Shown: positions 22,345 through 40,493 of the stretch, in pieces
Position numbering within the stretch: the first letter of the stretch is position 1
How the letters are laid out: each line of letters starts with the position of its first letter
Source of the DNA: Thermoplasmatales archaeon SW_10_69_26
Lineage (GTDB): Archaea; Thermoplasmatota; SW-10-69-26
NCBI GenBank assembly: GCA_003009755.1
Contig: PXUB01000032.1
Coordinates: 65,408-129,407 of the forward strand
Length of the DNA: 64,000 nt
Reading direction: 5' to 3'
Position numbers and translations under genes: made by a program
Notes under the pieces: generated by a model
Databases searched by the model: none
What the model saw: only the letters and a program-made list of their open reading frames with translations
Told to the model about the DNA's origin: nothing

Positions 22345-22652
22345 CGTGGATAGACCTTCCTCAGTACGTGCCTTAGGCTTGGCGGGTGGTTATACATTTC
22401 CCTCCGAGGGCGCGCAGGCGACCGCTATCCGTGGTAGGACGTGCCTAGGGACGTTCTCGGCGACCGGGAGCCTGGCATGGGTCTCCGGGGCGAGCGCGTT
22501 CGCGGTTCCTGGTGCAAGGGTTATACGGAACCGTCGGGCTCCCAGGCCGCGTGGGTCACGACCAGGTCGACCTCGACACGTTCCTGGAGGAGGGCATCCC
22601 CGAGCCCGCGGACCCGGGCGCGACCGGTGAGCCTTCCTACGTCAGCCACCCG

Positions 22653-24140
22653 ATGGTGGAGCCCGAGACGCTCGAGGAGCGCCCCTACCAGACCGAGCTG
22701 GCCGAGCAGGCCCACGGCCGTCGAACGCTGGTCGTGCTCCCGACCGGGCTCGGCAAGACGATGGTGGCGGCGTTGCTGGCCGCCGAGGTCCTGCAGAACC
22801 GCGAGGGCAAGGTCGTGTTCCTCGCCCCGACCCGGCCGCTGGTCCAACAGCACGAGGAGACCTTCGAGGAGCTGTTGCGCGCCCGGGACCAGGTCGCGCT
22901 CAGCGGCTCGGTCCCCGCCCAGCGTCGGGCCGAGCTCTTCGCGGAGAACCGGGTCATCTTCTCCACGCCCCAGGGCCTGCGCAACGATCTCGAGGCTGGG
23001 CTCGTCGACATCGACGACGTCGGCCTGCTGGTCTTCGACGAGGCCCACCGCGCCGTCGGCGACTACGCCTACGTCGACATCGGGCAACGCTACCGCTACG
23101 CCTGTCCCGAGGGCACCGTCCTCGGTCTCACCGCCTCCCCCGGCGGCGACGAGGAGCGCATCCAGGAGGTCGTCGACAACCTCGGCATCCACGAGATCCT
23201 CAGTCGCGACGCCGAGGACCCCAGCGTCAAGCCCTACGTCAAGGAGACGAAGGTCCGCTGGGTCAAGCTGCAGCTCACGCCTGTGATGGAGGCCGTGCAA
23301 GCCCGGCTGCAGAACGTCGTCGACGAGCGTGCCAAGCCCCTGAAAGAGGCCCGCTACCTCGAGCCCAAGCCCTACGTCTCCCGGACCGACGCGATCGAGG
23401 CCGGCAAGAAGATCCGGGCCGAGCTCGACGACGCCGAGAACAAGGGGCCGCTGTTCGGCATGTTGTTAAACCAGGGCGTCGTCATGCAGGCCCTGCACTG
23501 CCTCGAGCTCGTCGAGACGCAGGGTGTCGAGCCGTTGCAGACGTACCTCGCCCGCCTCATGCAGGACGAGGATCCCTCCCGCAGCGCGGAGGCCTTCGCC
23601 AAGGACCCCCAGGTCACGGACGTCTGGGCCCGCATCCAGGACTGGCCCCACCCCAGCCATCCCAAGATCGAGGCCTTGATCGAGACGTTGACCCGCGAGC
23701 TGGCCGACAACCCCGATGGCCTCGTCATCGTGTTCGCCCAGTACCGGGACACGATCAACTCGATCCTCGAAGCCCTCGAGGACGAGGGCATCGACGCCGA
23801 GAAGTTCGTCGGCCAGTCCGACCGCGACGGCGACGAGGGCATGAGTCAGGACGAGCAAAAGGAGGTGCTCGACCGCATGCGCGCCGGCGAGTTCCGCGTG
23901 CTCGTCGCCTCCAGCGTCGCCGAGGAGGGGCTGGACATCCCCAGCGTGGACCTCGTCGTGTTCTACGAGCCCGTGCCCAGCGAGATCCGGCTCATCCAGC
24001 GCCGCGGCCGCACCGGCCGCCAAAGCGTGGGCCGCATGGTCGTCCTCATCACCGAGGACACCCGCGACGAAGCCTTCATGCACGCCGCCATGAGCCGGGA
24101 GAAGAAGATGCGCCGCCTGGTCAAGGATCTGGGCGACTAG
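22653..24140 (+). CDS. Hef/FANCM-family DEAH-box helicase (helicase domains only)
   Basis: RPYQTELAEQA...LVVLPTGLGKTMVAALLAAE..., DEAH box FDEAHRAVGDYAY and helicase C (QRRGRTGRQ). Start at ATG 22653 by alignment to Hef N-termini; track ORF begins 22512. Confidence 0.75.
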   Translation: MVEPETLEERPYQTELAEQAHGRRTLVVLPTGLGKTMVAALLAAEVLQNREGKVVFLAPTRPLVQQHEETFEELLRARDQVALSGSVPAQRRAELFAENRVIFSTPQGLRNDLEAGLVDIDDVGLLVFDEAHRAVGDYAYVDIGQRYRYACPEGTVLGLTASPGGDEERIQEVVDNLGIHEILSRDAEDPSVKPYVKETKVRWVKLQLTPVMEAVQARLQNVVDERAKPLKEARYLEPKPYVSRTDAIEAGKKIRAELDDAENKGPLFGMLLNQGVVMQALHCLELVETQGVEPLQTYLARLMQDEDPSRSAEAFAKDPQVTDVWARIQDWPHPSHPKIEALIETLTRELADNPDGLVIVFAQYRDTINSILEALEDEGIDAEKFVGQSDRDGDEGMSQDEQKEVLDRMRAGEFRVLVASSVAEEGLDIPSVDLVVFYEPVPSEIRLIQRRGRTGRQSVGRMVVLITEDTRDEAFMHAAMSREKKMRRLVKDLGD

Positions 24141-24683: not shown

Positions 24684-25255
24684 CCGACGGTGCAACCGTC
24701 CTGTTCCCGGACGAGAGCACCTACCGCTTCACCCCCGTCCGCCAGCGCGGCTGGGCGCCCTACGGACAGCGACCGACCGTCGAGCACACCTACGGGGACT
24801 GGTGGACGGTGAGCGCGATCAGCGCCTTGGCGATCTGGATCGAGCCCGATGGCTCGTTAGGCACGAAGGTCTTCTTCCGGTTGTACCCGAAGGAGAGCGT
24901 GAACAGTCGACACCTCCGGGATTTCCTGCACCAGGTTCGCTACCAGCGCGAGGGCGAGATCAGCGTGGTGTGGGATCGCGCCAGCCATCACCGCGCCCGG
25001 CGGGTGCAGCGGTTCTTCGCTTCCTACGAGCGGTTCAGCTCGGTGTTGTTGCCGGCATATTGTCCAGAGTTGAACTCGGACGAGGGGGTGTGGAATTGGT
25101 CGAAGACCAAGGATCTGGCCAACGCCTGTCCGAAGGATGTGGATGCCCTGGTGTCGGGGGTTCGAGGGCCCTTGCGTCGGCTCCAGCATCGACCGAGTGC
25201 GCAGTGGTGGTGTGTGCACGACTCCGAGTTCCCGATCGAAGAGTTACTCACATAA
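24683..25255 (+). CDS. IS630-family transposase, DDE catalytic part (orfB, expressed by -1 frameshift at the A7 run 24672-24678)
   Basis: Frame continuing from the A7 run reads ...DESTYRFTPVRQRGWAPYGQRP...VVWDRASHHRARRVQRF...LLPAYCPELNSDEGVWNW... (DDE motif block of IS630/Tc1). Confidence 0.75.
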   Translation, partial: ADGATVLFPDESTYRFTPVRQRGWAPYGQRPTVEHTYGDWWTVSAISALAIWIEPDGSLGTKVFFRLYPKESVNSRHLRDFLHQVRYQREGEISVVWDRASHHRARRVQRFFASYERFSSVLLPAYCPELNSDEGVWNWSKTKDLANACPKDVDALVSGVRGPLRRLQHRPSAQWWCVHDSEFPIEELLT

Positions 25256-25266
25256 TGACCGGCAGT

Positions 25267-27048
25267 CTAACCGCTTTCGGTGGCGACCGAGAGGTCGCGG
25301 TCGAGCATCGCCCCCCACACCCCCCGCGGTGTCCGGCTGCAATCCGTGCACGCGAGATCGGGATCCTCGTACCGGTCACCGGTCCCGTCCCCGTCGACCA
25401 GCAACCCGTTCTCGCCGTTCCAGTCACCGTGCATGCAGGGGTCATCGCAGGCGAGGTCCTCCCCCACGGCGGCCCGGTAGGCGTCCACGCCCCCGAGGTC
25501 CACCAGCGAGGACCCCCAGCCGGCGGTCGCTCCACCGTTGGTCCCCCAAACGCCCGGGTAGGTCTCGCAGCGGGCTTGGCACAGCGCGTGGACGTCGACG
25601 CCGGCCTCGTAGACGTCATCGCCGCCGGCGTCCACCAGGCGTCCGACACCGAGGTGCCCTCCCCCGTTGGCCCCATGCCCTCCGGCGATGCTCAGGCATC
25701 GGCTGAGATGGGAGGCGTCGCCCAGACACTCGGTCGTGGCGTTCGTCCCGGCCTGGTACACGTCGTCGCCGTCCGAGGAGACGAGACTGCCCGAGCCGGA
25801 ATAGCCGCCGCCGTTCACGCCTAGGCCTCCGGCCACCGCCGAGCACTTGGACCCCTCGCAGGTGACCGATGCGTTGACGCCGGCGAGGAACGCGTCCTCG
25901 CCCCCGCCGTCGATCAGCGAACCAACGCCGACGTGGGCGCCGCCGTTGACGCCTGCGCTGCCGGCGCGGGCCACACAGAACTCCGCCTCGCACCGCTCCT
26001 CCGCCTCGTGCCCGGCGAGGTAGCGGTCGGTTCCCTCGCCTGCGTCGACGAGTAAGCCGATCCCGTTGTCCGCTCCGCCGTTGACGCCGCGTGCGTTCGC
26101 GTGGTAGGTGTCGTTGCCGGTGGCGTCCACGAGCACGCCCGTGCCCTCGAACCCGCCGCCGTTGACGCCACAGCACCGCGGATCGCTTGGCTGGCCGTAC
26201 GTGTCGTCGCCGCCGAGGTCCACGACCGCCGCGGCGGGGAACGTTGCGCCGGTGCCGCCGGCGTTGTTCTCGTACTCGTCGTCGCCTCCGAAGCTCACGA
26301 TGAGCGCGCAGTCGTTCGCAAACGTGCGGCTCTCGTCACTGGTGTCGAGGGCGACGGCAGGGCATGCGTCGACGGCCGGACGAGCCGCGGAGGTCGAAGA
26401 TTCCGCTACCATGGCCAAGTTCTCCACCGCATTCAGGAAAGCGGACCGAGCGGCGAAGACGTCGGCGAGTTCGCCGCCCTCGACGTGGGGGAAGGGATCG
26501 AGGCCCCCGTCGAAACCAGGAACCGCCCCCGTCCCGGCAGCTGGTGAAAGGCGAGCAGGGGAGGCTTGGTCGTCGGTGAGCTTTTTGGCCACGCTGGTAT
26601 CCGACACGGCCTCGAGCCGGAGGAACGTCGTGACGAGGTCGGCAAGCGCGTCCGCGAGACCCGGGGACCGTTGCTCGACGATCTGGGCGGCGAGGCGATC
26701 CCCGAGGTCGAGGATCGTCGCGTGGCGGTGGGTCAGGGATTCGAGGGCCGCGAACAAGGACGACGCCGAGCCCGTTGTCGGAGGTTCGTCCGACGGGATG
26801 CCGAGATCCCCGCTCTGCTGACGAGCCACGGCCTCGGCCACGTCCAGCGATGCAACAGCTGGAATCTCATCTTCGGTATCCGACGCGCCCTCGTCCGCGA
26901 TCCCGGCTCCGTGGGCGTCGCTCACCCTTTCCGGAACGAGGGTACCGGCCGCACTCGCCGCGGGAGCGAGGATCATCACAACAGCGAGGGCGACCGAAAC
27001 GCCCCTCAGCCGCCGAGCACGTTGGCCGAAAGAGAGGATATCCGTCAC
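25267..27048 (-). CDS. Secreted beta-solenoid repeat protein with about eight ~30-aa GVNGG repeats
   Basis: Signal peptide ...VSVALAVVMILAPAASAAG; repeats of form GVNGGxxxGxGxLVDxxGxDxYxAG; many Cys pairs; stop codon overlaps the TA target of the IS630 element. Confidence 0.65.
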   Translation of the reverse strand: MTDILSFGQRARRLRGVSVALAVVMILAPAASAAGTLVPERVSDAHGAGIADEGASDTEDEIPAVASLDVAEAVARQQSGDLGIPSDEPPTTGSASSLFAALESLTHRHATILDLGDRLAAQIVEQRSPGLADALADLVTTFLRLEAVSDTSVAKKLTDDQASPARLSPAAGTGAVPGFDGGLDPFPHVEGGELADVFAARSAFLNAVENLAMVAESSTSAARPAVDACPAVALDTSDESRTFANDCALIVSFGGDDEYENNAGGTGATFPAAAVVDLGGDDTYGQPSDPRCCGVNGGGFEGTGVLVDATGNDTYHANARGVNGGADNGIGLLVDAGEGTDRYLAGHEAEERCEAEFCVARAGSAGVNGGAHVGVGSLIDGGGEDAFLAGVNASVTCEGSKCSAVAGGLGVNGGGYSGSGSLVSSDGDDVYQAGTNATTECLGDASHLSRCLSIAGGHGANGGGHLGVGRLVDAGGDDVYEAGVDVHALCQARCETYPGVWGTNGGATAGWGSSLVDLGGVDAYRAAVGEDLACDDPCMHGDWNGENGLLVDGDGTGDRYEDPDLACTDCSRTPRGVWGAMLDRDLSVATESG

Positions 27049-27319
27049 GTCACCCAGCCTCGTTGCGGTGGTTGGGATGCAGCCCTTTCAAGGCTTCGTT
27101 GTCACAGCCCGAGGGGGAATCGCGTGCCGTCATCGAATGCGCTGGCGCACCCGCCATCCGGGCAGGGACGGTTCCGGGACGGCGTGTCCGCCGCCGACCA
27201 AGGCCGGGACAGCGGGGGCGATCATCAACAGGCCAACCAGGACGGCGCGGACCCTGACGAACATCGAGCAAGAAGGCTTAGCCGGACCCTATCAGGGTTC
27301 TCCGAGTGCGCCTAAACCG

Positions 27320-28705
27320 TCACTCTTCTCGTCCCTCGCCGCCGGGCACGTCCTCGGGCCCGATACCCAACAACCGCGGCAATGGATCGAACAGCGCCCG
27401 CTCAACCGTCGCCTGATCCACGGCCGCCTCCGAGGAACTACGCGTCCCGTTGTCCCGATGATCGTTGACCCCGTAGACACGGTACTCGTCATCCCCCGTG
27501 AGCTCGAAGCTCGTCCGCCAGGACGTCACACTCGGGTCCAGGTGCGCCACGGGTTGCCACGGGCTCGGGGCCTCGAACGTCGCGTTGGACCGGCGTTCGA
27601 CCACGTACCCCGTCAACACCGAATACGAGGTGGGTTTGGGCGGATCCCACGTGACCTCCGTGCTGAACGCATCGCCCTCGCGAACCGGTTCGACATCCAA
27701 ATCTCGGGGCGCGTTCGGCTCCAACGAGTAATGCACGATCTCCGCCAAATCCCCCCGCTCGAACGCCTGGGACCCGCCAAGCAGGATCGCTTGCCGGCCG
27801 GTCCACACGGCGGTCGCCTGGTCACGACCCGTGGGCAACCGGCTATCCATGAACCGGATCTCCTCCTCCCCCGGATCGACCCGCAGGATCGAGGCCTTGC
27901 TCACCCCGTCGTTGATCCCCCCAAGCACGAACGCGTGATGCCCATCCCACACGGCGCTCGGGGCCCGCAACGAAACGTTGAGCTTCACGTCCTGCAACTG
28001 AAGGGTGTCTGTATCGGGGTCGAAGCGCCAGATATCATCGCACTCGCCCGGGCAGCCAGTCCCCCCGAACAGGTAGGCCTCCTCGCCCGTCCACACCGAC
28101 GCCATCCTTTCACGCGGACCGGGGAAGCTCTCCTCCAGCTTCGTTACCGTATCGTTCACCGGATCATAGCGCAAAATCTGGTCCAGGGGAGTGAACGCGT
28201 CCCGGCCACCGAAGATGTAGGCGCGATCGCCGGTCCAGACCGTCGTCGCATCTATCGGATCGTTCGGTAGCGTGGCGTTCATTTCCTCGACCGTGTCCGT
28301 GGACGGGTCATACCGGGTCACGGTGTCCGTCCAGAACACGTACGCACAACCCTCGGGACAGCCTGCCTCCGGCCGCGAGCGATCATCCCACACCGCGGTC
28401 GCACTCGATCCCGTCCAGGGCAACCGGGCATCCATCACCGTCGCGTTGCCCGTATCCGGTTCGTAGCGAACGATCTCGTCACTGAAATCGCTGGACCCAC
28501 CAGTCCGGTTCAAACCCCCGAACACGTACACCGCCTCTCCCGTCCACACGGACGACGGGTTCTTCAACCCCTGCGGCAACTCGGCTTCGACGCTGGCCGT
28601 GTCCGCGCTCGCCGACGGCGCGATGAGGGCGACCACGGCCACGGCAGCCAACAAACCGACGCCGCCAGCGATCCAGGCACCTCCCATCGGTTCTCCCTCG
28701 AACAT
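27320..28705 (-). CDS. Secreted Kelch-repeat beta-propeller protein with C-terminal fibronectin-III-like domain
   Basis: Start chosen at MFEGEPMGGAWIAGGVGLLAAVAVVALIAPSASA; six Kelch-like repeats (VWTGxxAYVFGG pattern); C-terminal FN3-like ...PRDLDVEPVREGDAFSTEVTWDPP...YRVYGVND... Confidence 0.7.
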   Translation of the reverse strand: MFEGEPMGGAWIAGGVGLLAAVAVVALIAPSASADTASVEAELPQGLKNPSSVWTGEAVYVFGGLNRTGGSSDFSDEIVRYEPDTGNATVMDARLPWTGSSATAVWDDRSRPEAGCPEGCAYVFWTDTVTRYDPSTDTVEEMNATLPNDPIDATTVWTGDRAYIFGGRDAFTPLDQILRYDPVNDTVTKLEESFPGPRERMASVWTGEEAYLFGGTGCPGECDDIWRFDPDTDTLQLQDVKLNVSLRAPSAVWDGHHAFVLGGINDGVSKASILRVDPGEEEIRFMDSRLPTGRDQATAVWTGRQAILLGGSQAFERGDLAEIVHYSLEPNAPRDLDVEPVREGDAFSTEVTWDPPKPTSYSVLTGYVVERRSNATFEAPSPWQPVAHLDPSVTSWRTSFELTGDDEYRVYGVNDHRDNGTRSSSEAAVDQATVERALFDPLPRLLGIGPEDVPGGEGREE

Positions 28706-28855
28706 CGGCCAGGAGCCGCATAGACCCCCGCCTGTCACGTCCAATCGTAACACCGCCCTTGGCCAAAGGCATTCTCCAAGCGCGTGTGAACCGTCATCGA
28801 AGCCAAACCAAGCCCGAAGACAACTTATCACCAACTCAATTGGTCAATCGGGCTT

Positions 28856-29960
28856 GCACATAAACTCAGTTCTGACCTGACCGAGCGTCCCATCAATCCA
28901 ACAACCGAACGTTGTGCACGATCTCCCGCGCCAACACCGTGTTCCGCCGACTGGTCCGCAGCCGGCAGCGGAGACGATCGCCGAACAGCAGCTTGACCGT
29001 GGCAAACCGGGACTCCGCGGTCACCCGGCGACGGTACACGTCCTGAAACCGATTGGGGAAGTTGAGCGCGTATCGGGTCTTCTTCTCGAACGGATCGGAA
29101 GGGAACCGCCACCAGCGAGCGTTGCTCTTCGGCTTGAAGTAGGGCTGCAACCCGGCGTCTTTGACGAGCTGGCAGTTGTCCCGGGTCCAATACGCCTTGT
29201 CGCCCAACACGGCGTGGACGGCTGCTTCGTCAGGCACCTCGTCGATCAGCTCGGGCAGCTCTTGGCTGTCGTGCCGGTGCCCGGGCGTCAACGAGACAGC
29301 CAACGTGGCCCGGGTCTTGACGCCGTTGAGCACGTGCGTTTTGGCGTACTGGCGAGGCTCAGCGTCGTGTTCTCGCGCATGCCAGGCACCTTGTCCGGTG
29401 AGCACGAGACCCGAGGCATCCACGCTGGCGTTCTCTTCGAGGCTCCAGAAGGGCTGAGCGGTCTCCGCCAGCACTCGCTGAAGCGTGTTCGTGATCCCCG
29501 TTCTTGGTTGTACTGGCACAGCGTGTTGAAATGGGGCACGTGCTCGATGTCCAGATGGGGCTTGAGCAGGTAAAGCAGGCCTTCGGTGCGGCGGAAGCTG
29601 AGATCGAAGTACGCCCGGACCAGCAAGCCCAAGATGACGGTGCGGCGCGGGATCCGGGGCCGGCCGGTGTTGTAGGACCAGTTGTGGATGCAGCTGGCAT
29701 CCACGAGGTCTCGGAGACGGTGCACCACGCGCACCATCTCGCGGGCTTGCCACGTGTTGTATGTGCTCCAGTCGAAGCCGTTGTCGGTGGGTTCAAGCGT
29801 GTGCTGTTCTTCTGTTGTCACTCGGGCATCCATCCCAGCTCGATGGCTCTCGAGCGGGCTTCTCAGGGATGCCCCGTTTTGTCAACGGCAGTGGTTTGTA
29901 TCGCGTCAGCTGGGCTCGTAGCCCACTTTATGTGCGAGCCCCGGCCGAAGGCTGAGTTTC
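28856..29960 (-). mobile_element. IS4/IS5-superfamily insertion sequence, ends approximate
   Basis: DDE_Tnp_1-type transposase between short matching termini (left GCACATAAACTCAG at 28856-28869; right carries TTTATGTGC at 29926-29934 and CTGAGTTT at 29952-29959). The exact ends could not be resolved by eye. Confidence 0.55.
28893..29833 (-). pseudogene. IS4/IS5-superfamily DDE transposase split over two frames (frameshift near 29530-29600)
   Basis: N-terminal frame MDARVTTEEQHTLEPTDNGFDWSTYNTWQAREMVRVVHRL... ends about 29530. The C-terminal frame carries ...GDKAYWTRDNCQLVKDAGLQPYF...VYRRRVTAESRFATVKLLFG... (DDE and YRRR/ExxF signature). Confidence 0.7.
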
Positions 29961-30588
29961 AGGGATCGAACCCGACGGTGTAGCCCTTCTGTTCCAAGAT
30001 CTCCATCGCTTCGCTGGCGAGTTCTCGAGCCTCTTGCTCGTTTGGGACACCGTCGGCAAGCTGGGCATCCCATTCTTCTTGGACGCGCTCCCAGGAGATC
30101 AGGCCTTGGTCGAGAAGCGTCTGGAGATCCTCGATGTCGCGGTCGGGGGTATCCCGCCAGCGGCCGGTCACGCTCTTGAGCAAGAACACGGCGTTGGCTG
30201 GGGCTAGCTCGACGGTCAGGTTGCCCTCGGTGAACCACTCGTCTGTTGCCTCCGCCATGCGCTGGGAGAACTGCAGGCAACCGAAGATCCGTCCGGGCGG
30301 GAACAGATCCATGCTCATCACGTTCTCGCGCTCGCAGTAGATCCACATGTCGAAGGAATCGGTTAGCGGGATCTCCTCGGCCGGCTGGTAACCCACCCGA
30401 CCTAGCTCTTCGATGAGGGTGTGGATGGCCCGGTCGTGGTCGACGACGGCGTCCACGTCCTTGGTGGTGTCCTTGATGCCGCGGGCACTCATGCAGCAGC
30501 CGCCGAAGAGGATGAACCGCGTCGGTGCCTGGATGACCTCGCCGATCCGTTCGAGCTCGGTGCGGATCGTGGCGCGGTCAACGGGCAA
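29959..30588 (-). CDS. Polymerase-beta-superfamily nucleotidyltransferase (AbiEii-like motif), 209 aa
   Basis: NTase signature FILFGGCCMSARGIKDTTKDVDAVVD (hGG...G...T.DhDhhh) followed by a ~100-aa helical C-terminal extension; start overlaps the upstream wHTH gene by 11 bp; stop sits in the IS right end. Confidence 0.65.
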   Translation of the reverse strand: MPVDRATIRTELERIGEVIQAPTRFILFGGCCMSARGIKDTTKDVDAVVDHDRAIHTLIEELGRVGYQPAEEIPLTDSFDMWIYCERENVMSMDLFPPGRIFGCLQFSQRMAEATDEWFTEGNLTVELAPANAVFLLKSVTGRWRDTPDRDIEDLQTLLDQGLISWERVQEEWDAQLADGVPNEQEARELASEAMEILEQKGYTVGFDP

Positions 30589-31597
30589 GGCTGCCCTCCT
30601 CGACGCCGAAGTCCTCTCGGAACCGCTGGATCTCCTCCTCGAGGGGGTGCTCTCCGGTTTCGACGAACACCTTGGCTTCGTCCAAGAGCCCGCCGAGCTG
30701 GTAGAAGAACGCGCGATCGAAGAAGCTCTCGTGTCGGAGCAAGCGGTGGTCCACTGCAGCCAGGAAGAACGCCTTGGCTCTCAGGGCAACATCGTCGGCG
30801 CTGGAACCGGATGGATCCCGGCGGGGGGTTGCCTGGGCACGACAGTAGAGGAACATGTGATCCCAGGGGTCGAGCTCTCGGGGGCCCAGGTAGCCGTAGG
30901 TTGCCTCGCTCGCAATCGGGGAGAAGAGATCCAGATCCGAGGATGGACCCACGAGTTGGATCGGTGGTTCGAGATCGGCGTTGTTGAAGCGCCAGGCCAC
31001 CTCGAGGCCGCGCTGGTGGATGGGATGGTGAGCGAAGACTGCAGCTCGAACCGGGCCTTCCTGTTCTTCCAGCCCTCCCGGGTGGACCGCCTCGCTGGGC
31101 GGTCGGCGGTAGAGGTCGGCGTACTCCTCGATGAGCCATTGCAAACCGCTCAGGCGCGGGTTCGGTTCGAGGCCGCCCTCCGAGGAGAGCAGGAGGTTGC
31201 GGGAGCGCAGGTGGTCGATGGCGTCCTGCCAGGTCGACTTGTGGACGCCGACCAACTCGCGGGCGTCGGGATCACGGTGAGGATAGGGGAAGACGGTGAG
31301 CGCGGCCAAGTGGGTGGGTGCGGAGAGCTCATCCTCGAGGTTGGGTCGCTCGCTGAGGGCGTCCGCACATGCACTCGCCAGGTCGGCGTGGCGGGCGGTG
31401 AAGGTACGGTTGCGTTTGGCTCTCGATGCTTCCAGCAGGTTCAGCTCCTCGAGCTTGCGTACCCGCCGGTCGAGCGTCGACCGGGGGAGGAACTCGAGGT
31501 CCCGCAGCTGGAACCCGTCCGGGTCCGCTGCGGCGAGGATCCGGAGATCGCGGCCGTCGAGTGAGAAACGAACGGGGTTTCGCTTATCACTTGTCAC
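30578..31597 (-). CDS. Winged-helix DNA-binding protein with extended C-terminal domain (AbiEi-like partner of the nucleotidyltransferase)
   Basis: N-terminal wHTH ...LRILAAADPDGFQLRDLEFLPRSTLDRRVRKLEELNLLEA..., then a second predicted wH (...VHKSTWQDAIDHLRSRNLLL...) and a ~150-aa C-terminal domain; 3' end overlaps the NTase start. Confidence 0.6.
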   Translation of the reverse strand: MTSDKRNPVRFSLDGRDLRILAAADPDGFQLRDLEFLPRSTLDRRVRKLEELNLLEASRAKRNRTFTARHADLASACADALSERPNLEDELSAPTHLAALTVFPYPHRDPDARELVGVHKSTWQDAIDHLRSRNLLLSSEGGLEPNPRLSGLQWLIEEYADLYRRPPSEAVHPGGLEEQEGPVRAAVFAHHPIHQRGLEVAWRFNNADLEPPIQLVGPSSDLDLFSPIASEATYGYLGPRELDPWDHMFLYCRAQATPRRDPSGSSADDVALRAKAFFLAAVDHRLLRHESFFDRAFFYQLGGLLDEAKVFVETGEHPLEEEIQRFREDFGVEEGSLAR

Positions 31598-31856
31598 CGG
31601 TTGTTTCCAATCTCGATCAAAGACACTTAAGAGTTCCTCTGATTGGGTGCTTCACAAACGGGTTCACAGACGGTACCGGGAGAGGCGAGGTTCGCCTTTG
31701 GCGACACGCATCGGCGTAGTTCTCTGGATCTGCTTGCAGACGAAGCGGAGACAAGGTGAGTCCCACCTGCATCGTCGAGTAGCTCACGGCACGTAGCCGC
31801 ACCCGGCCTGGCTGGGGAAGAACGACATCTGCGATCCTGGGGGGAATCTTGGAGTC

Positions 31857-34800
31857 TCACGGTTCTGCGGCGTCCGCGGGCTCGGTCAACCACGGCAGGA
31901 TGTGGGCGCGACCGATGACGTCGTCGCAACCCGGGCTCGATGGACCCTGGGCACAACCCCACCAGTTCCGCCTCGCTTCGCCGCCCCCGACGAACCCGGC
32001 CTTCTCATTGCCAGCGATGTTGGAGTTCACTGCCTCCAGGTCGGAACCTCTTGCGTCGACGCCGACCGTGTTGTTGGAGATCTGCATGTGCTGCAGCTCG
32101 GGCTCCAGGATGCTCTGGTCGTTCTCGACCCCGGTAGCGAAACCTTCCACCTTGGTCTCGGTTACGGTGGTCAGCGTGGTTCCGGGGAGCGCGATCCCCG
32201 TTCGCCCGGTCCCGGAGACGACGGTCCCGTGGATCGAGGAGGAGTCCTGGAAGATGATCCCTGTGACGCCTTCGTAGACGATCCCCTGGCGAGCGTCGTC
32301 GATGTGGCTGTTCGAGACATCGATGTTGACCGTAGCCGCCGCTCGGAGGCCGACCTCTCCCTCTTTCACGGTGACGTTAGAGATCGACACGTGTTGGCCG
32401 CCGAGGACCTGGACGCCGACCCCGGTTTCCTCCAGCTCGATGTCCTCGACGATCGTGCGGTTGGTGTTCGCCAGGATGACCTGCCCTGGTGGGACTGGTT
32501 CGCCCTTGGACGTCGTCGGTGGCGGCACGAGGTTCCCGTCGCTGTCGCACCACACCTGTGGGATCACGGCATCTTGGGCGTCTTGACAGAAGAGGACGGG
32601 ACGGTCGTTGACGGTGTTGGCCCGCGTGATCGCCACGTCCGGGACATTCCAGCTGTCCGGCTCGAAGAAGATTCCCCCCTTCGTCATCGCGTTCGCGTCG
32701 ATCCTCGCTTGCTCGACGTCCTGGATCGCGATCGCCTTGGGGAACCCGTCGATGCCGTTCACCGCGATGGTGACGTTGTGGCTCCGTTCTGCTTGGAGTC
32801 CTCCGTCCTCGACCACGGGATACAGGGGGCTGTCAGATTCGTCCGCTGTTCGGTGGATCTCGTTTCCGCGGACGAGGACGTCCTCGGTTCGCTCCAGGGA
32901 CAGCCCTGTCCGTTGAGCCCGGAGGACGTTGTCCTCGACGTGGGCAGCGTCGACGTTCTCGAGGGCTACGGCGGTGCGGCCCTCGAGGTTGGTTCCCTCG
33001 AGGCGGACGTCCTGGCTGTCGACGATCTGGATGGGTACAGCTCCATCCTCGATCTGGAGCCCCCTCACGGTGACGTTCTCGGTACCTTCGAGCACGACCT
33101 GACCGTAACCGGGACGGACGGTTCGGTTGTCCTCGCCGGCCAGGTAGGCGACGGGGCGTCCGCGGACCGTGTTGGAGCGGTCGATATCGTGACCGTTCTC
33201 CGCATGCCCCCAGAGACCGTCCTCGATGCGGAACCCGGCGTCGGTAAGGCGGTTCCGTTGAAGTTGGAGCTGGTCCCCGTCGAGCATGATCCCGGTCTCG
33301 TTCGCCTCGACCGTGTTCTCTCGGACGGCGTACTGCTCGCCGCCGAGAAGCATCCCGACGTGGGAACCATCGACCAAGTTGTCGACGGCGCGACTCCGTT
33401 CGCCCGCGAGGAGCACGATCCCGTGAGTGCCTCCCTGGACGGAGGTGTTCGCGACCGTGACGTTGCGGCCAACGGCTAGGACGCCGCCCAGGGGATCCCC
33501 TTCCCCGGGCATGCGAACATCAGCACTGCGGATAGAGCCCCGCTGGTCCGGGGCGTCGCCAGCGACGCCTACGGCTGGTTGAAGGACACCGCCGATACCG
33601 TGCAGGAGGCGGATCCCGAGATCCGAGACGTTGATCTCGACATTCACGAACTCCACGCCATCACCGCCGATGGCGCTCAGGCCTCGCCAACCGCCGGTGA
33701 CGCTGACGTTGCGGACGGTCACGTTGTCGGTTTTGAAGGTCTGCACGCCGACCGTGGTGGGGCCGAGCTCGCGGTTCTCGATGACGGTGTCCGAGACGTT
33801 GACGAGGATGATCTGGCCGGCTGGCCCCTCCGGGCTCGCCGAGCTTGTGTCGGTGACGTAGCGGATGGGATCGCCGTTGACGGTGTTCGAGGGAGGGATC
33901 TCGTGGGACCCCGCCGAGCGGTACCCCTCGAGATGGACACCGGTTTCCTGGAACTCGTTCCGGTAGAGCGAGGCGTTGTCCGCCGAGGAGAGCCGAAGCC
34001 CGACGTCGGCGCCGCGGAGCCGGTTGTCCTTCAAGACGATCCCGTCGGACGAGGTGTGAATCCCGACCTCGGTCGCCTCGATCGTGTTGTTGTGGATTTT
34101 GGGGGTGTCCGTCCCCCGCAGCTGGATCCCGTGACGGGCCTCGAGGATTTTGTTCCGACTCAAGGACGTACCGGGAGAGGGCCAGACGAGGTCCACCCCC
34201 TGGTCGACGTTCTCGATGGTGTTCCCCTCGGCCTTCATTGTGGCGTCCCTCGCTCTCAACCCGACCGACCAGTTGACCAGCTGGTTCGCCTCGAACACCG
34301 CGGTTGCACCAACGGCGACACTGAGGGCTGTCCCCGAGGGGAACCCACGGTCGGGGGGAGAACGGCCCAAGAGCGTGTTGTTCTTGGCCACGAGCGTGGC
34401 GGAGCCTCCAGCAGCGAGGCCGTCTTCCTTCCACCCCGGGCGGATCTCGGTGCCGGTCACGATCGCTTCGCTGGCTCCGATGGAGATGGGGCCGTCGACC
34501 CGGCTTCGAGTGACGTTGAGCGAGGAGTCCGTGGTGACGATAGCTCCTTCCGCCTTCACGGCTGTCAGGTTCACCGAGGCCTGTGTTGCGGTGATGCCCG
34601 CAGAGAACGAGCCGGCCACGCTGTCGAGGGAGGCGTTGGTGACGGAGACCGAGGTCCGCGTCCGCTCGTCGGTCCATCCGTCGAGGACGATGCTGCCGCC
34701 GCCGTGAACGCGCAGGCCCTCGTGGGCGTCGCCCACCTTGTTGTCGGTGAGCTCGGCGGAGGCGTCCGTTTCGAGAGCGGTACGGGCGGAGCGGATCTGG

Positions 34801-35810
34801 TTCTGAGTGAACGCTCGGATCTCCGAGTCGAGGATGCGGAATCCGTCGGGGCCGGGGCGGTGGGGAAGCGGCGTTCCGACAAGGTTGGCCTGGACGTCCA
34901 GTCCGTTGATGCGTTGGAGGTCCATGGCCACGGCTGGGTCCTCGCCGTAGCAACACAGGGTGGTCGGGTAGGACACCGTGTTCGCTTCGATTATCACGTT
35001 CGAAGCGTTCGTGACCGAGAGGGCCTGGAAGCTCCGCTCGAACCTGTTGTCGGCGACGTGGAGGTGATCGCTTCCTTCTGCCTCCAGGCTAGGCGGTGGT
35101 GGCGTATCACGAGCGGCGAAGTCGTCGACGGACCCTGGCAGGGGGGAAAACGCCATCTCGTCCTGGGGGAGGATACGGTTATCCTGGATCGTGATGTTCG
35201 TGGCGTTGGCGAGGAACACCGTCGTCGGTCGGGCCTTGCGGCCGGCATCCTCGGGTGAAGGTTCGCCGCCGATGCGATTGTCTTGGAGGACGACGTGGGC
35301 GTCCGTGTCCTCGACCCTGATGCTCGTCACGTTCCAGCCCGCGATCAGATAGGGATCCTCGGAGGTGCCCTCGCCGTCGACCACGCCCGAGCCAGGCCGG
35401 TAGGTGGATTCCCCGGTGAGCGGTTCGCGGAGCTCGAATCCCTGTCGAGGCTGGTCGCCATCGATTGTGATGGGTGGATGATGGGGTCGCTGGGCGTGAT
35501 CAACGGGCTTAGTTCCTGCTTCGTCCGCGCCGAGGCTGGAGGGACAGCGTGCGGGAGGCTCGCATCGGTTGAAGGTGTGGGCCGAGGCGGGCTCCTCTCT
35601 GGGGAGAGCCTCGAAGTTGGGGGATGGTTGGGTGTCGATGCGGTCCTCCGTGTGGAGGATGCCACGTTCTGCTTGATCGAGGGTGGGAAAGCCCGCTGCC
35701 GCGTTCTGTAGGAAGAGACCGAAGGCGAGGAGGGCCCCCATGCAGGCGAGCGAAGCGGGGATCGGTCGTGTACGCCTGGGGAAACACATGGCCACGGGCG
35801 GCTGGCTCAC
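31857..35810 (-). CDS. Giant secreted right-handed parallel beta-helix (PbH1/NosD-like) repeat protein, 1317 aa
   Basis: Signal peptide ...MGALLAFGLFLQNAAAG; dozens of ~22-aa repeats of the pattern NxIxxNxxxGIxL / VxNNTIxxxxxG across the whole length; acidic C-terminus. Confidence 0.75.
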   Translation of the reverse strand: MSQPPVAMCFPRRTRPIPASLACMGALLAFGLFLQNAAAGFPTLDQAERGILHTEDRIDTQPSPNFEALPREEPASAHTFNRCEPPARCPSSLGADEAGTKPVDHAQRPHHPPITIDGDQPRQGFELREPLTGESTYRPGSGVVDGEGTSEDPYLIAGWNVTSIRVEDTDAHVVLQDNRIGGEPSPEDAGRKARPTTVFLANATNITIQDNRILPQDEMAFSPLPGSVDDFAARDTPPPPSLEAEGSDHLHVADNRFERSFQALSVTNASNVIIEANTVSYPTTLCCYGEDPAVAMDLQRINGLDVQANLVGTPLPHRPGPDGFRILDSEIRAFTQNQIRSARTALETDASAELTDNKVGDAHEGLRVHGGGSIVLDGWTDERTRTSVSVTNASLDSVAGSFSAGITATQASVNLTAVKAEGAIVTTDSSLNVTRSRVDGPISIGASEAIVTGTEIRPGWKEDGLAAGGSATLVAKNNTLLGRSPPDRGFPSGTALSVAVGATAVFEANQLVNWSVGLRARDATMKAEGNTIENVDQGVDLVWPSPGTSLSRNKILEARHGIQLRGTDTPKIHNNTIEATEVGIHTSSDGIVLKDNRLRGADVGLRLSSADNASLYRNEFQETGVHLEGYRSAGSHEIPPSNTVNGDPIRYVTDTSSASPEGPAGQIILVNVSDTVIENRELGPTTVGVQTFKTDNVTVRNVSVTGGWRGLSAIGGDGVEFVNVEINVSDLGIRLLHGIGGVLQPAVGVAGDAPDQRGSIRSADVRMPGEGDPLGGVLAVGRNVTVANTSVQGGTHGIVLLAGERSRAVDNLVDGSHVGMLLGGEQYAVRENTVEANETGIMLDGDQLQLQRNRLTDAGFRIEDGLWGHAENGHDIDRSNTVRGRPVAYLAGEDNRTVRPGYGQVVLEGTENVTVRGLQIEDGAVPIQIVDSQDVRLEGTNLEGRTAVALENVDAAHVEDNVLRAQRTGLSLERTEDVLVRGNEIHRTADESDSPLYPVVEDGGLQAERSHNVTIAVNGIDGFPKAIAIQDVEQARIDANAMTKGGIFFEPDSWNVPDVAITRANTVNDRPVLFCQDAQDAVIPQVWCDSDGNLVPPPTTSKGEPVPPGQVILANTNRTIVEDIELEETGVGVQVLGGQHVSISNVTVKEGEVGLRAAATVNIDVSNSHIDDARQGIVYEGVTGIIFQDSSSIHGTVVSGTGRTGIALPGTTLTTVTETKVEGFATGVENDQSILEPELQHMQISNNTVGVDARGSDLEAVNSNIAGNEKAGFVGGGEARRNWWGCAQGPSSPGCDDVIGRAHILPWLTEPADAAEP

Positions 35811-36049
35811 GGTTCCGCCTCCGAGTCGGGCTCGGCCAACCCTGATTCGACCAAGACGTTCCCCTCGATACCGTCTCCGCTGGTCGAGAGACCGTTCACG
35901 GAGGCCAGCCCTGTGCTGGGAACCGGAATCAGGGTGATGGCAACGGTGAGCGTCAGGCTGCGCAGCTCCTCCTGCCTCGGACGTCCAATCGTGACAGCCG
36001 ACTCAAAAGCGTGTGGATAGAACCGAAGGGGTAGAACCGGCTCGGACAC
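35807..36049 (-). CDS. Hypothetical small protein (80 aa) overlapping the start of the giant beta-helix gene by 4 bp
   Basis: ORF MSEPVLPLRFYPHAFESAVTIGRPRQEEL...AEPDSEAEP; ATGA overlap suggests coupling but there is no recognisable domain. Confidence 0.25.
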   Translation of the reverse strand: MSEPVLPLRFYPHAFESAVTIGRPRQEELRSLTLTVAITLIPVPSTGLASVNGLSTSGDGIEGNVLVESGLAEPDSEAEP

Positions 36050-36119
36050 CGTACGACGGTCGCCGACGGTATGCGAGAGGTCGGCTGCCCTCGCCCTCCT
36101 CCAGCGGGTGTTACACCAG

Positions 36120-37345
36120 CCTAGTGCTTCTCAGCTTGTGTCAGTAGTACCGGGCCACTCCGAACTGAACTCACATCCCGGGGTTCTGTAGCTGTCTCAG
36201 CCAGACGGAGCCCATTTGGTCTTCAAGGCCTCTAGCGGCTATCTCCGGCCCCTTCATCGCTTCAGCCGTCACGATCGCTTCGAGCGACAAAAGTCCGTGG
36301 TGGAGGGCCTTGTTGTCGCTAGTTCCTCTCCCAACTGAGAGACGTTTAGAACCTCGCCCACACCCCTCCACCGCCCGTCTCCCTGGGCATGACCGATGAG
36401 TTGCCCAGCCTGACCGAATTCGTCAACACCCACCCCACCGAAGACGACTGCCGGCAATACTCCGCGAGAAACGCTGGGGCGAGGACGGCTTTGAATGCCT
36501 ACACTGCGGAGAAGACGAACACTGGGGCTTCATCGAAACGCGCCACCTGTTCCAGTGCCACGAGTGCGGCAAGCAAACCAGTGTGACCGCGGGCACGATC
36601 CTGCAGGACACCAAGCTCGACCTGCAGACCTGGTTTTTGGCGATCTACCACGTCATCAAAACCAAGAAGGGCATCACGGAGCCCGAGCTCGCCCGCACGC
36701 TCGGCGTGCACGCGGAGACCGCGCACAACATCCGCCAGAAGATCTACCGCATCCTGAGACGCGCGCAACACCGGCCGTTAACCGGCGTGGTCGAGGCCGA
36801 TGAAACCTACGTCGGCGGCAAGCGCCCCGACGATCCCAGCGGCCGGGGCACCACGAAACAGTGCGTGGTCGCCCTCGTCGAGAACAAAGACGAGGAAGCC
36901 GGCAACCTGCACCTGCAATGCGTGCCCGGCGCCGGCGGCGAGAACCTGGCCCCCACCGTGCGAGCCCGCGTGCAGGAAGGCTCGATGTTGTGGACGGACA
37001 ACGGGGACGGCTACAACGGGCTTGCGGCCTACGAGCGCGAGGTTCGCCAACCCGACGACGATCAGGAGATGCACGACGTGCTGCCGTGGAGTCACCGGTG
37101 TTCAGCAACCTCAAACGCGTGCTGTACGGGGTGCACGCCTACGTGGAGAACTGGAACGTGCAGCCGTACTTGGACGCGTTCACGTTCCGCTTCAACCACC
37201 GCCCGTTCCTCGGCAAGGCCCTCGAGAAGGCCTTGCAAGGCATCGTTGAGACTCTTCCTCGACCGAACGATCGGCTCAAACGATCCGGGCAGCTGGGGGC
37301 AGCGGCGTAGAGGGGGTTACTGAGACACCCCGAGAAGCACTTAGC
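36120..37345 (+). mobile_element. IS1595-family insertion sequence (about 1.2 kb)
   Basis: Terminal IRs CTAGTGCTTCTCAGCTTGTGTCAGTAGTACC (36120-) and the reverse complement of ...GGTTACTGAGACACCCCGAGAAGCACTTAG (-37345); encloses an IS1595-type transposase. Confidence 0.6.
36389..37310 (+). pseudogene. IS1595-family transposase with two frameshifts (near 36465 and 37085)
   Basis: Zn-ribbon region RWGEDGFECLHCGEDEHWGFIETRHLFQCHECGKQTSVTAGTILQDTKL... and the C-terminal signature ...FSNLKRVLYGVHAYVENWNVQPYLDAFTFRFNHR... are found in three different frames. Confidence 0.7.
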
Positions 37346-37471
37346 CCGGAAGGCCGCTAGCGCCTCCCGGGGGCCGATCGCTGGGCGCGACACCGCGTCG
37401 CACCGGCCGGGCAACGCTTTTATCCTGGACCAGGGTTGGAGACGTTGCCGCGATTCTGCGGCGCTCACCGT

Positions 37472-37544
37472 GGCCCGCGTAGGGTAGTGGTCATCCTCAC
37501 GGCTTGTGGAGCCGTGGAGGCGGGTTCGACTCTCGCCGCGGGCC
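37472..37544 (+). tRNA. tRNA-His (anticodon GTG) with encoded G-1
   Basis: Hand-folded: G-1 then acceptor GCCCGCG/CGCGGGC, anticodon stem CACGGC/GCCGTG with loop TTGTGGA (GTG), T-arm GCGGG-TTCGACT-CTCGC, discriminator C pairing with G-1. Confidence 0.8.
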
Positions 37545-37774
37545 CTCACTTCGACCCTCCGCAGGTTCTCCCATCGATCGAGCTCCGAACAGAGGGCCTC
37601 AGGGTCGTGCTCTGAGGGGAGGCGACCGGAACCTGAGCGCGTCTCGGCGAGCCGACCGGCTCGGCCGGCGGGCGCGTTGCTCGGCGTAGGGGTCCGCGTG
37701 GGCACGAAGGAACGGGTTGCCCAGCGATCGCTGGCGGTGGGCGCTCGACGCGTTCATCGTCGCTCCCCAGCTCC

Positions 37775-37978
37775 TCACGTCCGCGCGAACACGACCGTCG
37801 TCTCCCCGTCCCGGTGGAGCGGGACGGGCGCGTAGTCGCTCGGGTCGAAGGCGTAGCCACCGCCCCTGCCGGCGTCGACGTGGTCGCAGATGCGCAGCCG
37901 CAACCAGGCCTTGCGGACGTGGTCGACGGCGGCCTCCGCGTCGACGGTGGGCTCGCGGTCGTCGCGGGTATCGATCAT
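37775..37978 (-). CDS. Hypothetical small acidic protein (67 aa); a tandem paralogue lies upstream but is disrupted
   Basis: MIDTRDDREPTVDAEAAVDHVRKAWLRLRICDHVDAGRGGGYAFDPSDYAPVPLHRDGETTVVFART. An upstream copy (about 38037-38171) with the same DHVRxxWLRxR...RGGG...P.P...DGET pattern needs a frameshift in a C5 run and ends at an in-frame TAG. Confidence 0.3.
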   Translation of the reverse strand: MIDTRDDREPTVDAEAAVDHVRKAWLRLRICDHVDAGRGGGYAFDPSDYAPVPLHRDGETTVVFART

Positions 37979-38324
37979 CGTCGGCTCACCATCCCCCTCG
38001 TGAACCTCGGAGACCTTGAAGCACCTCTAGCGATCCTCGAAGACGCTGGCCTTCCTCCCGCTGATCTTCGCGAAGGCGAACCCGGTCTCGCCGTCCTCCT
38101 CGACGGGGATCGGCTGGTACTCGCAGATCCCAGCCACAACCCCCGCCGCGCTCCGTCTCGAGCATCGACATCACCCGGTCACGCAGCCACGTGCGCCGGA
38201 CGTGATCGCCCCCGTCGGGGCTGGGAGGCTCGGAGAGGGGGCCGCGGGGCTCGTCACCGGACGCCGGCGGGTCGGGCGCGCGCTCATCGTGACCACACGA
38301 GGGTCTCCTCGCCCAGGCACTTGA

Positions 38325-40493
<2,169 letters not shown>

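Follow-up and report, generated by a model that had tools for sequence, protein, structure and literature searches.

A divergent archaeal module of a double winged-helix partner and a DUF6036-type nucleotidyltransferase, a candidate MenAT/AbiE-like toxin-antitoxin cassette on mobile DNA

A pair of overlapping genes was analysed in a 64,000-nucleotide stretch of the genome of Thermoplasmatales archaeon SW_10_69_26 (contig PXUB01000032.1, positions 65,408 to 129,407), referred to below as the window. The first gene encodes a protein of 339 amino acids with predicted winged helix-turn-helix (wHTH) domains, here called the partner, and the second encodes a nucleotidyltransferase (NTase) of 209 amino acids; the coordinates of all features are collected in Table 1. 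A reading made earlier from the letters of the DNA (the sequence-only reading) had described these two open reading frames (ORFs) and an overlap of 11 nucleotides between them, and this was confirmed: the overlap, TTGCCCGTTGA, is exactly 11 nucleotides long and extends from the TTG start codon of the NTase to the stop codon of the partner. The peptide quoted by the same reading, FILFGGCCMSARGIKDTTKDVDAVVD, corresponds to residues 26-51 of the 209-residue protein. Identical proteins are recorded as the hypothetical proteins BRD56_08735 and BRD56_08730 of 'Thermoplasmatales archaeon SW_10_69_26', and this source name replaces the haloarchaeal host that had been assumed.

In a word-indexed search of 5.8 billion protein clusters, five relatives were found for the NTase and three for the partner (P0006-P0008). 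On every contig with a close NTase homologue, a partner gene was situated directly upstream; the two genes overlap by 11 nucleotides in loci L001-L005 and by a longer stretch in L006. In L001, the partner had been truncated by the gene caller, and the full GTG-initiated ORF is intact. When the window was compared with L003 and L004, the ratio of non-synonymous to synonymous substitutions (dN/dS) was 0.10-0.27 for both genes (partner 0.13-0.27, NTase 0.11-0.23), with dS above 1. Since homologues exist, the pairing is the same in L001-L006 and the dN/dS values are low, both ORFs are real genes under purifying selection.

The junction between the two genes is conserved at the nucleotide level. 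A Shine-Dalgarno (SD) sequence, GGAGG, contained in GTCGAGGAGGG, sits within the VEEG codons of the partner and upstream of the TTG start of the NTase. The whole segment GTCGAGGAGGG...CTTG was invariant in 5/5 loci, synonymous positions included, despite dS values above 1, and TTG was the NTase start codon in all five. The conserved SD and the conserved weak start codon after it indicate that translation of the NTase is coupled to that of the partner and attenuated. As the invariance extends to synonymous sites, the conservation of the VEEG tail is, at least partly, a constraint on the SD. The idea that this acidic tail is an element inserted into the active site, by comparison with D85/E86 of AbiEi, was considered and dropped; given this constraint, no role at the protein level is claimed for it.

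Upstream of the pair, a TATA-like element, CTCTTAAGTG, lies about 30 nucleotides before the GTG start of the partner, and in L003 and L004 the equivalent position is occupied by AT-rich boxes. Positions 31651-31673, immediately before the TATA-like box, hold a tandem direct repeat, TTCACA(A/G)ACGG (TTCACAAACGG / TTCACAGACGG); a different tandem repeat is found at a comparable position in L004. A search of the promoter for operator repeats returned short two-copy repeats only, none of them conserved between loci, and these repeats may be operators or chance matches.

In order to place the NTase, profile searches were carried out with the protein and its relatives. The window NTase matched the Pfam family DUF6036 (PF19502) with 18.5 bits (E = 0.0019), below the gathering cut-off of 23.6, and the close-clade representatives P0009, P0010, P0012 and P0014 gave no match to this family. 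DUF6036 was matched by 20 of the 25 relatives reached with a profile of the window clade (best E 1.4e-15). The window NTase thus appears to be a sub-threshold outlier clade of DUF6036. AbiEii (PF08843) was not matched by the window NTase, either in Pfam at E up to 1 or with the AbiEii models of PADLOC, and was missing from the eight Pfam families matched by the 25 NTase relatives (E up to 0.01). As positive controls, a fragment of the toxin MenT1 matched PF08843 (E = 6.9e-9), and true AbiE genes in the neighbourhood of relatives were recognised with the same tools (E = 7.8e-68 for AbiEii and 3.1e-50).

None of the MNT, tRNA-NTase, antibiotic-NTase or other housekeeping families matched the NTase in Pfam, NCBIfam or PADLOC, and a housekeeping assignment, named by the sequence-only reading as a possible refutation of its proposal, was not obtained. 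A housekeeping or resistance NTase that happens to stand beside an unrelated regulator, or a pair of spurious ORFs, is effectively refuted. High-GC DNA does yield many long ORFs, such as a 383-residue ORF antisense to the partner gene (30413-31561, plus strand), which was rejected as a shadow ORF typical of such DNA; both members of the pair have homologues, however, their dN/dS values are those given above and their adjacency is kept over great distances, fusions included.

All four of the motifs by which Dy et al. (2014, PMC3985639) define DUF1814/AbiEii were located in the window NTase. Motif I (hG[GS]) is F28-G29-G30, motif II (DhD) is D44-V45-D46, motif III, a lysine in hydrophobic context followed by an arginine, is L137-K138...R143, and motif IV (+DxxD) is R150-D151-I-E-D154; D94 provides the third carboxylate. 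Motifs I and II, T42, K138, D151 and D154 were invariant in 35 sequences (25 genomic and 10 plasmid-borne), and R143 was invariant in the 10 plasmid copies and present in at least 90 % of the genomic alignment A5. The plasmid-borne homologues used in this check are independent of every profile built. The window clade is further marked by a WRDTP insertion between motifs III and IV. It also has two consecutive cysteines straight after motif I (GGCCMS, residues 31-32), of which C31 is invariant in the clade; other family members mostly have alanine at the second of these positions (GG.AM).

When the PDB was searched with the profile of 25 NTases, one credible match was obtained, to MenT1 of Mycobacterium tuberculosis (8an4/8an5/8rr5; E = 4.6e-4), with profile positions 11-160 aligned to chain residues 3-159 across all motifs. 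In the hidden Markov model (HMM) alignment, T39, D41, K137 and D152 of MenT1, described as highly conserved residues of the NTase fold (PMC11375011), align with T42, D44, K138 and D154 of the window NTase, and the basic residue R40 corresponds to K43. T39 is auto-phosphorylated under the influence of the antitoxin and lies two residues before the first catalytic aspartate (PMC11375011); T65 of AbiEii is likewise an auto-phosphorylation site two residues before the first catalytic aspartate. An AlphaFold2 model of the NTase, built from a shallow alignment, reached a predicted local distance difference test (pLDDT) score of 58 and a predicted template modelling score of 0.56. In a Foldseek search with this model, the top ranks went to MenT1 structures and to a fungal DUF1814-like protein, with the polymerases beta, mu and lambda behind them, a result that gives weak corroboration of a kinship with MenT1. 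Together, these data point to a place for the NTase in the DUF1814 (MenT/AbiEii) superfamily, as a distant relative of the bacterial toxins.

MenT1 (Rv0078A), the toxin of MenAT1 in the COG4849 branch of DUF1814, is also small, with 196 residues against 209, and has the hGG, T-x-D-h-D, K...R and +DxxD motifs in common with the window NTase, including T39 = T42. The shortness of the NTase, which had been held against its likeness to AbiEii, is thus moot. The two differ in that MenT1 itself belongs to Pfam AbiEii, by profile scan, whereas the window NTase does not match it, and their similarity amounts to 23 bits. Moreover, the antitoxin MenA1 is small and without a wHTH domain, whereas the window partner is a 339-residue double winged-helix protein, and the family of the window pair is apparently essentially archaeal (24/25 genomic loci and the named plasmid hosts).

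The pair had been likened to AbiE (COG5340-COG2253), known from Streptococcus agalactiae and Lactococcus. The resemblance held for the gene order and the overlap and for the combination of a wHTH protein with an NTase of the polymerase-beta fold; membership of the AbiE families did not hold for either protein. Both systems are bicistronic, with a regulator composed of wHTH and C-terminal domains encoded first and a DUF1814-type NTase second, with overlapping genes, linkage to mobile elements and all four NTase motifs. In AbiE, neutralisation proceeds via the C-terminal domain of the antitoxin, and a threonine stands two residues before the catalytic aspartate, as it does here. The window pair departs from AbiE in several respects: two wHTH domains precede a C-terminal domain of unrelated type (HVO_2833_C) in the partner, the NTase falls short by about 80 residues, with 13 residues between motifs I and II and not 15, and fusions of the two proteins as well as wHTH domains borne by the NTase occur in the archaeal family. 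A canonical AbiE abortive-infection system (AbiEi/AbiEii) would account for the operon logic and for the relationship of the NTase at superfamily level. We nevertheless regard it as extremely improbable, since no AbiEi or AbiEii model of Pfam, NCBIfam or PADLOC, nor any other defence model among them, matched at E up to 1, 20 of the 25 relatives match DUF6036 and true AbiE neighbours were found easily with the same tools. The labels 'type IV' and 'GTP-specific' that had accompanied the AbiE comparison are out of date, since AbiE has been moved to type VII in a 2026 preprint, where a preference for UTP is reported.

For the partner, an architecture of two N-terminal winged-helix domains followed by a divergent HVO_2833_C-like C-terminal domain was assigned by comparison with its relatives. 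Its C-terminus ends in an invariant tail, HPL..EI.RF..F/LGVEEG.L. By hhalign, the family of the window partner (A2) aligned with the distant partners (A6) over nearly their full length (292 columns) with 97.7 % probability (E = 1.8e-12). The distant partners carry one or two winged helices of TrmB/MarR/ArsR type, and PF24271 (HVO_2833_C) was detected in 8 of 22 upstream or fused partners. The window partner gave no direct Pfam match to PF24271, and its C-terminal domain aligns with proteins that bear HVO_2833_C. Profile searches of the PDB with the partner returned generic wHTH regulators only, among them a weak Lrp/AsnC match (E = 0.26); the wHTH assignment rests on this match and on the profile alignment to the TrmB/MarR/ArsR-bearing relatives. 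AbiEi was not matched by the window partner with Pfam and PADLOC models at E up to 1. The AlphaFold2 model of the partner, also from a shallow alignment, had a pLDDT of 45, too poor for a fold search. The partner is predicted to be a DNA-binding autoregulator and antitoxin.

The statement of the sequence-only reading that the partner is not a HEPN protein was borne out: no conserved Rx4-6H motif was present in the partner alignments A2 and A6, and no HEPN match was obtained in Pfam. This bears on an arrangement of reversed polarity, in which the NTase would be an antitoxin that nucleotidylates and inactivates a toxic partner, as in the type VII HEPN-MNT (HepT-MntA) systems. NTase-containing systems that work in this way are known, and archaea have them in abundance (PMC3632139; PMC7641770); they are two-gene modules like the window pair, and fusion of their components is known and typical (PMC3632139). 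HEPN-MNT, however, combines a minimal NTase antitoxin with a HEPN RNase toxin, whereas the partner considered here consists of winged helices and HVO_2833_C, and the NTase carries the DUF1814-specific C-terminal motifs III and IV, which minimal NTases lack. In addition, the order of the genes, regulator first and NTase second, is that of AbiE and MenAT. We consider such a reversal very unlikely.

The pairing is not restricted to close relatives. When one genome of each prokaryotic species was scanned with a pattern, 25 loci with NTases 23-33 % identical were obtained, of which 24 are archaeal; the exception is one weak match. Among them are loci from Thermoplasmatota, Halobacteriales, Thermococci, Hydrothermarchaeales, Methanothrix, Hadarchaeota, Altiarchaeota, Woesearchaeota and Nanoarchaeota. 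The family has a patchy distribution, with members in Thermoplasmatota, Halobacteria, Thermococci, Methanothrix and DPANN lineages. A same-strand upstream partner or a fusion was present in 20 of the 25. In 17, the NTase gene is directly preceded by a same-strand ORF of 208-343 residues; the two overlap by 4-26 nucleotides in 12 loci and are at most 137 nucleotides apart in the rest. In three others, from Halonotius (L009), Thermococci (L010) and Hadarchaeota (L025), partner and NTase form a single ORF of 513-556 residues. The remaining loci are mostly cut by contig ends or are very weak matches. On plasmids, the partner was upstream in 10/10 unfused loci among the 11 sampled, and the eleventh (L038) is a fusion. 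The co-occurrence of the two genes, proposed earlier as a check, was thus found in the close loci, in the distant loci and on plasmids.

A HMMER search of 1.84 billion representative proteins returned 533 clusters at E up to 1e-3 and 209 at E up to 1e-10; the ten clusters at E up to 1e-30 represent the window's own clade (about 10 clusters at 50 % identity). Because the partners align by hhalign over nearly their full length and the NTase relatives match DUF6036, the window pair is best described as a divergent clade of an archaeal module that combines an HVO_2833-type partner with a DUF6036 NTase.

This module was also found on plasmids. A tblastn search of PLSDB gave 59 plasmid records with the window NTase as query (30-37 % identity over at least 94 % of the length) and 91 records with a fused form as query; every host that the summaries and listings name is a haloarchaeon. 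RefSeq names these copies 'HTH/ArsR/MarR regulator | DUF6036 family nucleotidyltransferase', the NTase profile A1 scored them at 100-110 bits, and their key residues are identical. The DUF6036 and PF24271 modules of haloarchaeal plasmids in RefSeq are therefore the home of the window pair at superfamily level. The window clade differs from them in lying below the Pfam thresholds, in having no C-terminal wHTH domain on the NTase and in its WRDTP insertion, and it combines a TTG start with an 11-nucleotide overlap, against ATG and a 4-nucleotide overlap in the plasmid copies.

Plasmid pHV4 of Haloferax volcanii DS2 carries an intact module, HVO_RS03780/HVO_RS03775 (L032, 6947-8679), between ISH51 and IS4 transposases. 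It lies near a DEAD-box helicase and DUF790 pair, and pHV4 was matched by the search at a second place as well. Insertion sequence (IS) elements also flank the module on a plasmid of Halobaculum marinum, a conjugal transfer gene is near it on one plasmid, and ParA lies about 2 kb away on one plasmid. On two plasmids (L037 and L038, the latter with a fused module), the module follows a block of PolB, orc1/cdc6 and a divergent ORF of 107 residues. L035 has orc1/cdc6, this ORF and the module, with no PolB seen, and two further plasmids have the ORF beside the module. In L035, L037 and L038, the module thus sits in the replication region of a family of plasmids of about 100-170 kb. The conserved 107-residue hypothetical ORF, which the window lacks, might serve as a third component. 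Viral contigs yielded no relative.

In the window itself, the pair is flanked downstream by an IS5-family insertion sequence with terminal inverted repeats of 15 nucleotides at 28850-28864 and 29927-29941, GGGCT(T/C)GCACATAAA. Its transposase is split over two overlapping minus-strand ORFs (29291-29833 and 28896-29753), which suggests a frameshift. The element is present in a single copy in the window and shows no obvious target-site duplication. It had been thought to overlap the NTase stop codon; it ends 17 nucleotides past this codon, with no overlap, and is context and not a component of the module.

The pair is part of a compositionally atypical block at about 25000-38400, in which the GC content at third codon positions (GC3) is 0.70-0.83, against 0.92-0.94 in gyrB, a helicase and a Mur ligase; the pair itself has 0.79-0.83. 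Besides the pair, the block contains secreted proteins of Kelch and beta-helix type, the IS5 element and a transposase of IS1595 type, and it is probably a horizontally acquired surface-protein island that ends beside gyrB. A mobile setting typical of defence cargo had been claimed for the pair, and the mobile setting was retained. PADLOC was run on the 24 genes at 12-51 kb. The attributable matches were those of the Lhr-type helicase to generic helicase models; most of the model families, and each of the models DpdJ, BrxH, HamB and Cas3, drew matches from two of the 24 genes, the other one presumably being the DEAD-box helicase. One match to mREase_IV (E = 5.8e-14) was not traced to its gene. 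The remaining genes are housekeeping genes and three transposases; a DDE_3 transposase is among the genes of this region. The helicase matches look generic, and the window is not a defence island.

Table 1. Features of the window, with the 107-residue ORF of plasmid loci in the last rows
Feature	Position	Strand	Remarks
Partner gene	30578..31597	-	339 aa, GTG start
NTase gene	29959..30588	-	209 aa, TTG start
Translational-coupling junction	30578..30605	-	SD GTCGAGGAGGG in partner codons, then NTase TTG
Putative promoter/operator	31598..31700	-	TATA-like CTCTTAAGTG and tandem direct repeat
IS5-family insertion sequence	28850..29941	-	1092 bp; terminal inverted repeats; DDE_Tnp_1 and IS5 NCBIfam matches
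Lhr-type large helicase	11972-14677	+	DEAD, WH_Lhr, DEAD_assoc
DEAD/ResIII helicase	22512-24137	+	
Gly/Asp-rich protein	25270-27048		593 aa; no Pfam match
Secreted Kelch-repeat protein	27323-28834		
Beta-helix/NosD protein	31860-35810		1317 aa; upstream of the pair
gyrB	38433-40490		Next to the end of the atypical block
107-aa ORF, L035	5589-5912		324 nt; divergent, just upstream of module
107-aa ORF, L036	466-789		As above
107-aa ORF, L037	5598-5921		As above
107-aa ORF, L038	6141-6464		As above
107-aa ORF, L042	4597-4920		As above

In the closest loci, L001, L003 and L004, the two genes alone are shared with the window, and the flanks show no synteny. As this is combined with an IS5 element beside the pair, an atypical GC3 and the plasmid records, the pair is a self-contained, horizontally mobile two-gene cassette.

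The conserved pairing, the homologous partners, the match to MenT1, the DUF1814 motifs, the mobility and the patchy distribution lead to the proposal of a toxin-antitoxin cassette of MenAT/AbiE-like type whose role would be to stabilise mobile DNA, a reading to which we give an even chance. Other toxin-antitoxin genes near some loci are a further, suggestive point in its favour: in 21 genomic loci, 6 MNT-type NTases, 3 PIN proteins, 2 AbiEii and 1 AbiEi were counted among the 146 ORFs that lie no more than 5 kb from the module, although these counts have no background control. The analysis demonstrates the anatomy of the pair, its conservation, its mobility and the identity of its catalytic site; toxicity, target, interaction and phosphorylation are what we infer here. 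The NTase would act as a toxin: it would inhibit growth by nucleotide addition to an RNA, most likely at tRNA 3' ends, where MenT1, MenT3 and AbiEii also add nucleotides. It would be made at a low level from its coupled TTG start. The partner would bind its own promoter through its winged helices and regulate the operon, and its C-terminal domain would bind the NTase directly and so neutralise it, which might trigger auto-phosphorylation of the invariant T42. Such a cassette would serve to stabilise plasmids or genomic islands, with abortive infection as a further possibility.

Several observations weigh against a toxin-antitoxin cassette. The similarity to the DUF1814 toxins is remote, at the 23 bits given above, the AbiEii models themselves are unmatched, and the structure models of both proteins are of low confidence. 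The C-terminal domain of the partner has no detectable similarity to that of AbiEi, and PADLOC found no clear defence genes at 12-51 kb of the window. No paper mentioning DUF6036 or HVO_2833_C was found, and hence no studied member. Furthermore, 22 of the 150 best representatives are single-chain fusions of partner and NTase, of 512-708 residues, which is atypical of toxin-antitoxin pairs, although HEPN-MNT offers a precedent (PMC3632139), and many NTases of the family end in a winged helix of their own, a feature absent from known NTase toxins. The fusions sampled contain wHTH domains and a DUF6036-type NTase, and some also have HVO_2833_C or a C-terminal wHTH domain. In the longer ones, P0100, P0106, P0111, P0130 and P0133 (677-708 residues), the NTase occupies about residues 313-480 and is followed by about 200 more residues, in which no Pfam family was found in the three that were scanned (P0100, P0106 and P0130).

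The fusions and the extra winged helix would favour a non-toxic pair of regulator and NTase, acting on DNA-bound targets, a small molecule or a protein and controlling transcription or the replication and copy number of the plasmid or island. With the extra winged helix, a unit of partner and NTase would have up to three DNA-binding domains, the fusions recur, the module lies beside orc1/cdc6 and the 107-residue ORF (with PolB too in some cases) on several plasmids, and most neighbours in the genomic loci are ordinary metabolic genes. On the other hand, every one of the nearest relatives of the NTase that have been characterised is a toxin, a site near replication and partition genes is typical of addiction modules too, and the patchy distribution, the IS association and the lack of synteny fit a selfish cassette better; moreover, the window clade is without the extra winged helix. 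We regard a regulatory pair as a serious possibility, yet a rather doubtful one.

The proposal that the pair is a distinct or undescribed variant was upheld in that it would be a distinct NTase-based toxin-antitoxin variant; undescribed it is not, because RefSeq already names the DUF6036 relatives. The domain families DUF6036 and PF24271 are thus catalogued. The pair is, however, unrecognised by PADLOC, and the window clade lies below the Pfam thresholds too. The result extends the known theme of NTase and wHTH proteins in the DUF1814 superfamily in an expected direction and overturns nothing. A bolder extrapolation, which we hold to be improbable, would be a large archaea-specific, plasmid-associated branch of NTase toxin-antitoxin systems, missed by defence and toxin-antitoxin finders, with control, by type VII logic, through auto-phosphorylation of an invariant threonine that the partner induces, and with natural single-chain fusions; more radically, it might consist of non-toxic, DNA-tethered NTases that control replication or copy number beside orc1/cdc6.

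Inventories of toxin-antitoxin and defence systems in archaea are built on bacterial models. The family described here is invisible to PADLOC, though it is present on dozens of haloarchaeal plasmids and ranges from DPANN to Thermoplasmatota, and it keeps the exact residues through which the MenT/AbiEii toxins act and are switched off. The copy on pHV4 in Haloferax volcanii is a tractable representative in a genetic model. If the NTase is toxic, an archaeal branch would be added to the NTase toxins, control by auto-phosphorylation would be extended beyond bacteria and natural fusions would become available for mechanistic study. If it is not, archaeal plasmids would carry, in this module, a DNA-bound NTase regulator of a new type.

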